This document shows, piece after piece, positions 6,428 through 6,469 of a stretch of 37,412 nucleotides of DNA; positions within the stretch are counted from its first letter, which is position 1, and each line of letters starts with the position of its first letter. The stretch lies in contig NW_021836833.1 of assembly GCF_006345805.1 (NCBI RefSeq), positions 1 through 37,412 on the forward strand, given 5' to 3'. The position numbers were made by a program, and so were the translations under genes. The stretch is from Octopus sinensis (taxonomy: Eukaryota). The notes beneath the pieces are model-generated. The model saw nothing but the letters and a program-made list of their open reading frames with translations, did not search any database and was not told the origin of the DNA.

Positions 6428-6469
6428 TCCAGAGACTAGTTTCTGAGTCTTGCTCGTCGTCAGTCTGGA
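6428..6469 (-). ncRNA. Minimal type I hammerhead ribozyme
   Basis: UCCAGA-CUGACGA-c-GAG-caaga-CUC-a-GAAA-CUAG-UC-UCUGGA: 6-bp stem I, intact core, palindromic stem III ACUAGU, GUC site. Confidence 0.75.

Follow-up and report, generated by a model that had tools for sequence, protein, structure and literature searches.

A solitary copy of a many-copy hammerhead ribozyme repeat in Octopus sinensis, likely belonging to a non-LTR retrozyme family

The 37,412-nucleotide stretch of Octopus sinensis DNA analyzed here (contig NW_021836833.1; hereafter, the window) holds at positions 6210-6558 a solitary full-length copy of a many-copy hammerhead repeat of 349 to 350 bases, likely a metazoan non-LTR retrozyme family. 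Direct observation established the hammerhead motif, a repeat unit without an open reading frame (ORF), its multicopy family, head-to-tail joints between units in DNA, and copy ends permuted relative to the cleavage site. Elements of this kind have been described in many animals, among them corals, mussels, and amphibians. Probably, the window copy is a dispersed monomer moved by a Penelope-like element (PLE), and self-cutting and RNA circles are predicted for tandem copies. The coordinates of all features are collected in Table 1.

Table 1. Features of the hammerhead repeat copy and its immediate flanks
Feature	Position	Strand	Description	Basis
Full noncoding repeat monomer	6210..6558	minus	349 bases, 43% GC	
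Helix I	6469-6464 / 6433-6428	minus	6 Watson-Crick pairs	
Extension of helix I	6475-6473 with 6426-6424	minus	UGC/GCA	sequence
Helix I internal loop	within 6424..6475	minus	U6427 (3′ strand), UAC 6472-6470 (5′ strand); predicted to dock on loop II	
Core strands	6463-6457; 6443-6440	minus	CUGACGA; GAAA	sequence
Helix II	6455-6453 with 6447-6445 (span 6444..6456)	minus	GAG/CUC, 3 bp, first pair G-C	sequence
Helix II loop		minus	CAAGA, last base A6448	sequence
Unpaired position at base of helix II	C6456·A6444	minus	C·A	sequence
Helix III palindrome	6440-6435	minus	ACUAGU	sequence and folding
Cleavage-site triplet	6436-6434	minus	GUC; predicted cut between 6434 and 6433	sequence
Long predicted hairpin	6397..6501	minus	105 nt, ribozyme at tip	
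Second predicted folded domain	6227..6322	minus	10-bp helix 6322-6313/6254-6245 and 7-bp hairpins	
Hairpin remnant	6210..6225	plus	4 bp; 7 to 8 bp in 4 of 5 listed head-to-tail joints	
(TA)n tract, 3′ end of minus-strand unit	6188-6210		common to left neighbor repeat	
(TA)n tract, 5′ end of minus-strand unit	6558-6568		common to right neighbor repeat	

Sequence inspection and a descriptor search located a type I hammerhead on the minus strand at 6469-6428. Every element listed for it in a preliminary description was found in the sequence, i.e., the 6-bp stem I, the CUGACGA/GAAA core, the ACUAGU palindrome, the GUC site, and the unpaired C/A at the base of stem II. Canonical metazoan hammerheads act as dimers and consist of a 6-pair helix I, a helix II of four positions, and a helix III that is short and palindromic (PMC4209133). 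The motif has the CUGANGA and GAAA core with an NUH site and a short helix III with a palindromic loop as defined in that paper (ACUAGU). Instead of a 4-bp helix II starting with G10.1-C11.1, we found the C·A followed by 3 bp. A U·U has been described at the base of helix II (PMC3088659) and is present there in axolotl Amex2 (PMC7229834); the same C·A occurs in one motif copy (that in L001) among the 26 found in unrelated metagenome loci. The 5′ U, extrahelical pyrimidine, and final A of loop 2 that characterize helix I and the loops are provided by U6427, C6470, and A6448, whose counterparts in the Schistosoma crystal structure form the contact between the loops (motif U1CCA:GUAC8, loop CAAAUA; PMC2632901). 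The earlier proposal that the stem I internal loop could dock on loop II holds at the level of these nucleotides, which match the Schistosoma ribozyme, and docking itself is a structural prediction. Closure of helix III within a monomer was calculated to cost 4.5 kcal/mol, and for a pair of copies a 6-bp duplex of −4.8 kcal/mol is predicted. A monomer may nevertheless be weakly active, since newt-type monomers can cleave when helix I carries a looped extension (PMC6155905).

Sequences of this stretch were present, whole or in part, in 20 of 24 listed runs from 10 studies. We aligned public assembled contigs of four runs (X1, X4, X5, and X9) to positions 6213-6812 at 80% identity; X1, X4, and X5 have contigs and joints in common and are thus not strongly independent genomes. 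Run X20, an RNA run with a share of 0.07, lay outside this set. Most aligned contigs were only 90 to 95% or less identical to the window copy, which indicates an old family. Core position 7 (6459), a C in the window copy, is U in 94 to 100% of the depth in the four runs. This is the only position within 6413-6472 among the 40 of 120 differences listed, each of which reached at least 50% in at least one run. Because neither C6456 nor A6444 is among those 40, we infer that at least about half of the family carries both; a U-A subfamily at the base of helix II is possible. A one-base insertion that turns loop II into a hexaloop accounted for 4 to 22% of the depth.

These data bear on the possibility that the hammerhead arose by chance or is a long-dead relic and that no family member has ribozyme function. 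Rfam hammerhead models gave no match in the window, neither at the gathering score nor at E values up to 10 (relaxed E values returned only microsatellite-driven, miRNA-type noise), and this, the C·A at the base of helix II, and the age of the family all speak for such a reading. On the other side, the relaxed type I descriptor with a helix I of at least 6 bp matched in only 2 of 1,000 whole-window shuffles and 2 of 1,000 block shuffles (0 of 300 in a smaller run of the same kind of control), and only the 6469-6428 motif among the three relaxed-descriptor matches in the real window has a 6-bp helix I. The docking nucleotides are present, and the sole listed difference within 6413-6472 yields the usual core letter. 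We therefore regard a chance match or relic as very improbable.

Folding predictions placed the ribozyme at the tip of a long hairpin (6501-6397) of −46 kcal/mol (z, −2.5; 2 of 200 shuffles folded equally well), with pair probabilities of 0.88 to 0.99. Stem I had been proposed to extend through an internal loop; the UGC/GCA step is confirmed, and the predicted stem continues far beyond it to 6501/6397, via helices 6481-6477/6423-6419 and 6501-6487/6411-6397 (15 bp; mean pair probability, 0.99). The common family letter at 6408 changes a G-U pair of this hairpin into A-U, and the family letters at 6251 and 6319 preserve pairing in the second folded domain. Folded as a circle, the unit reached −102.5 kcal/mol with 66% of its bases paired (z, −2.9; 1 of 100 shuffles), a predicted fold of the stable, self-paired kind that is expected of retrozyme circles. 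Fifteen common family changes were placed on the fold: all three located in helices of probability of at least 0.85 preserve the pair, four (6524, 6380, 6343, and 6267) break minimum free energy pairs in weakly predicted helices of the linear fold, and none of the 15 contributes to a compensatory double change.

The unit is noncoding, falls within the range of ∼150 to 450 nt with a GC content below 50%, and carries one type I hammerhead, as retrozyme units do. Stop codons interrupt all six frames of 6200-6570, in agreement with the ORF-free host segment described earlier. That segment had been portrayed as an element of ∼330 bp between TA tracts; the tracts are present, and their positions give a unit of about 349 bp instead. 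The search for tandem copies proposed at the same time was productive. Among the 15 of 105 joints listed, the head-to-tail joint from 6556 to 6218 occurred in all four runs and that from 6553 to 6213 in three, while X5 also contained joints from 6555 to 6213 and from 6556 to 6214. The five listed joint variants yield units of 349 to 350 nt, with no TA run across the joint. Completion of the terminal hairpin at the joints (Table 1) lends modest support, given a chance expectation of ∼5% (503 of 10,000 shuffles). The joints listed (15 of 105) each had about one to three times the one-contig depth and were present in DNA runs, indicating that genomic tandems exist; a large uniform array was not seen. 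The head-to-tail joint in X9, a run that we guess to be RNA, was found in DNA runs too.

No second unit copy was found in the window, and the 6210-6558 locus lacks the two or more consecutive hammerhead-bearing units that Li et al. term active (bioRxiv 10.64898/2026.07.22.740005). The window copy fits their monomer class, solo monomers being a described state of retrozymes. As it holds a single ribozyme, it cannot release a unit-length circle by itself. The circular monomer envisaged in the preliminary description is thus not to be expected from this copy and is predicted for tandem copies, so that divergent RT-PCR would probe tandem loci elsewhere. The ends of the window copy lie ∼125 and ∼225 bases away from the predicted cut site. 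Depth across that site went from 2166 to 1902 in X4 and from 2576 to 2277 in X5, without a sharp step, which indicates that copies extend through it; in X1, 76% of which was read, depth dropped from 820 to 360. The distant ends and the smooth depth in X4 and X5 suggest that the template of the copies was likely circular or uncleaved RNA and not the cleaved linear monomer.

Abundance was expressed as the ratio of summed contig depth to the median for one-contig joints (43 in X1, 6 in X4, and 49 in X5), which we take only as an indication of thousands, since summed depth is not a copy number. Over the ribozyme (6413-6472), the ratio was ∼1,900 to 2,600 in X4 and X5, i.e., by rough estimate some 2,000 copies. 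Along the unit, it amounted to ∼1,700 to 2,500 at 6213-6252; 6,000 to 18,000 at 6253-6392; 1,900 to 2,600 in X4/X5 and 300 to 1,600 in X1 (76% read) at 6393-6472; ∼750 at 6473-6492; and about 20 to 230 at 6493-6552. In each of the four runs, stretch 6253-6392 exceeded its two flanks in depth several-fold, and in X4/X5 it was ∼3 to 8 times deeper than the hammerhead region; it belongs either to an abundant subfamily that has diverged or to a second family with a common body. Stalling of reverse transcriptase (RT) at the base of the long hairpin was considered for the depth drop near 6393 and dropped, as 6213-6252 is equally low and divergence explains the dips too. In the putative RNA run X9, the family was rarer relative to the neighboring repeat than in the DNA run X5 (X9/X5 ratios ×1,000 of 6 to 19 versus 17 to 182).

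An alternative reading of the deep middle 140 bp is a commoner SINE-like repeat (body 6253-6392), comparable to Schistosoma Sm-alpha, of which the unit would be a minor subfamily with a hammerhead, moving as linear RNA by LINE-driven reverse transcription. LINE-type RT fragments do occur in the window. However, neither a tRNA gene (ARAGORN) nor an Rfam small-RNA head was detected, the depth gap may merely reflect the 80% identity limit, and the head-to-tail joints rebuild a hairpin without a TA spacer, all of which renders this origin quite improbable. An intermediate scenario, unlikely in our judgment, is that of a retrozyme turning into a SINE. Few tandem sources, active as dimers only and carrying the C·A hammerhead, would have seeded ∼2,000 ribozyme monomers and >10,000 ribozyme-less fragments into TA microsatellites of a lineage for which the literature searched gives no retrozyme report; transcripts of scattered monomers could then pair via ACUAGU and cut each other in trans.

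Both ends of the unit lie inside (TA)n, which masks any target-site duplication. With 41 tracts of at least five TA units in the 37-kb window, and with all neighboring repeats flanked in the same way, TA flanks are not diagnostic of the element, and we dropped them as such; the (TA)n bounds of the preliminary description are real but unspecific. The neighboring TA-flanked repeats at 5875-6038 and 6068-6187 have copies elsewhere in the window. Positions 6570-6710 belong to a separate, very high-copy repeat with a peak summed depth of 2.3 million in X5 and relative enrichment in X9. In style, the repeats of the window seem in keeping with an octopus genome.

Between the two identities first proposed, retrozyme-like unit or solo pseudo-LTR (pLTR), the data favor the retrozyme by virtue of the multicopy family, the head-to-tail joints, and the canonical hammerhead. 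As the solo pLTR of an autonomous PLE, the unit would owe its joints to partial pLTR-pLTR tandems, and the hammerhead would process a long PLE transcript without forming a small circle. We rate this as unlikely. Retrozymes and pLTRs are related (Li et al.), and PLE pLTRs carry type I hammerheads, in which a palindromic helix III and an additional nucleotide following A9 are frequent (PMC4209133). The unit resembles them in type I topology, palindromic helix III, an unpaired base after A9, and insertion into a microsatellite; the TA flanks agree with the preference of some PLE clades for such sites (PMC8557442). Depth declines toward the minus-strand 5′ end of the unit, and the 5′ neighbors of most copies are unseen, which is why this reading retains some probability. 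Yet PLE hammerheads are minimal (helix II of 7 to 8 bp, helix I of 4 to 5 bp, poorly defined loop 1), whereas that of the unit is canonical, with a short helix II and a full 6-bp helix I bearing a docking loop. Moreover, joints in DNA link the 5′ end of the unit to its own 3′ end, and the unit contains no remnant of a reading frame. No adjacent ORF with RT and GIY-YIG domains was found at the 6210-6558 locus, nor did the 150 of 165 window ORFs scanned yield any GIY-YIG or PLE match.

As a non-LTR retrozyme, the family would follow the known model of tandem transcription, dimer cutting, ligase-closed circles, and PLE copying (PMC7229834; PMC7761336). Minus-strand transcription of tandem loci would be followed by ACUAGU pairing between adjacent hammerheads, docking of the helix I internal loop on loop II, and cleavage after C6434. 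Circularization of the monomer would fall to a host RtcB-type ligase. The circle, or uncleaved tandem RNA, would then serve as the template of a Penelope-like RT/GIY-YIG protein that starts near 6210, and unit or subunit-length copies would be inserted into (TA)n tracts. The window copy would likely be a product of such copying and a dead end, which at most cuts a read-through transcript, probably weakly. Several observations count against the retrozyme: the uneven depth, the fall in X1 at the cut site, the low depth of the listed joints, the lower relative abundance in X9, the four changes that break weakly predicted pairs, the C·A by the core, the failure of 8 of 9 predicted Xenopus retrozymes to cleave (Li et al.), and the unseen 5′ neighbors past 6556 in most copies, where a PLE ORF is possible.

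Comparison with known systems was by description. The metazoan non-LTR retrozymes of Cervera and de la Pena 2020 (PMC7229834) measure 350 to 390 bp in mussel, 330 and 350 bp in axolotl (Rtz_331 and Rtz_353), and 220 to 240 bp in coral. The octopus unit is like them in its type I hammerhead, length of ∼350 nt, GC content below 50%, lack of an ORF, self-paired predicted circle, head-to-tail copies, and thousands of motifs. It is unlike them in that the window locus holds a single monomer within a TA tract and tandems appear only as low-depth joints. Axolotl HHR_Amex1 and newt satellite-2 (PMC7229834; PMC6155905) have in common with the unit a one-pair helix III with a palindromic tetraloop, loop 1-loop 2 contacts, and dimer dependence (the last two predicted for the unit); the unit differs from them by the C·A at the base of helix II, and in Amex2, the U·U goes along with a stronger helix III. 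According to a 2020 review (PMC7761336), helix III is stable in most invertebrate motifs, unlike in the unit described here. Schistosoma mansoni Sm-alpha (PMC2632901) is alike in internal loop 1 (5′ U, last C, and UAC 5′ strand), in the CAA...A of loop 2, and in the 6-bp helix I, whereas the unit has the pentaloop CAAGA instead of CAAAUA, the C·A at the base of helix II, and no promoter head that we could find.

A literature search on hammerheads in octopus and other cephalopods returned no report of this family, and one on C10.1/A11.1 returned none of the C·A variant; the supplements of PMC7229834 and of the Li et al. preprint, as well as Lunse et al. 2017, may list either. A 2026 repeat annotation of Octopus vulgaris (PMC13282606) records abundant PLEs, and the words ribozyme and hammerhead are absent from its main text and supplement as far as these were accessible. 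The family would add thousands of copies to the known animal retrozymes and would bring in a natural C·A variant of helix II along with a helix III that depends on dimers, as in amphibians. Copies seem mostly dispersed, with few tandems, so that a complete assembly could map RT start and stop points on the unit, and such a map would test the open claim that PLEs copy retrozyme circles.

Relatives of the unit were sought in other sequence collections. The 23 metagenome loci retrieved (L001-L023) match over the hammerhead alone, and no family member was found in viral contigs or in prokaryote genomes. Helix I is 6 bp long in 18 of the 26 motif copies of L001-L023. Six of these contigs (L005, L007, L012, L014, L020, and L022), unrelated to the unit, carry type I hammerheads with the same ACUAGU in direct-repeat units of ∼600 to 1,000 nt and are candidate retrozymes or circular RNAs. 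A phage-contig hammerhead at 401-470 of L029 and L030 has, judged by eye, a helix II of 6 bp and a helix III that is long.

Other elements populate the window. On the minus strand at 25504-25445 lies another, weaker hammerhead-like motif that is not related to the 6210-6558 unit. It has a CUGACGA and GAAA core, a 10-nt palindromic helix III, a 5-bp helix I, and a helix II that is long and irregular and has U·U at the base. Its fold is no better than that of shuffles (z, +1.2), although descriptor matches with a 5-bp helix I arose in only 3 to 4 of 1,000 shuffles. It is possibly a decayed PLE-type hammerhead and perhaps the source of the word "again" with which the preliminary description introduced the unpaired position at the base of stem II. 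Broken non-LTR retrotransposon ORFs with RVT_1 or zf-RVT domains occupy 1733-2961, 13696-15477 (minus), and 16381-20369 (plus); we take those on the minus strand to be R4/Dong-like and those on the plus strand to be RTE-like. The relatives of a window LINE ORF bear shrimp, hydrozoan, fish, and sea cucumber names (51 to 68% identity). A mariner-type transposase fragment (PF01359; E value, 1.6e-08) is encoded on the minus strand at 27095-27355, and a dispersed SINE-like family with 184-bp partial tandems is found at 3848-4592, 23016-23384, 27249-27618, and 32708-33007.
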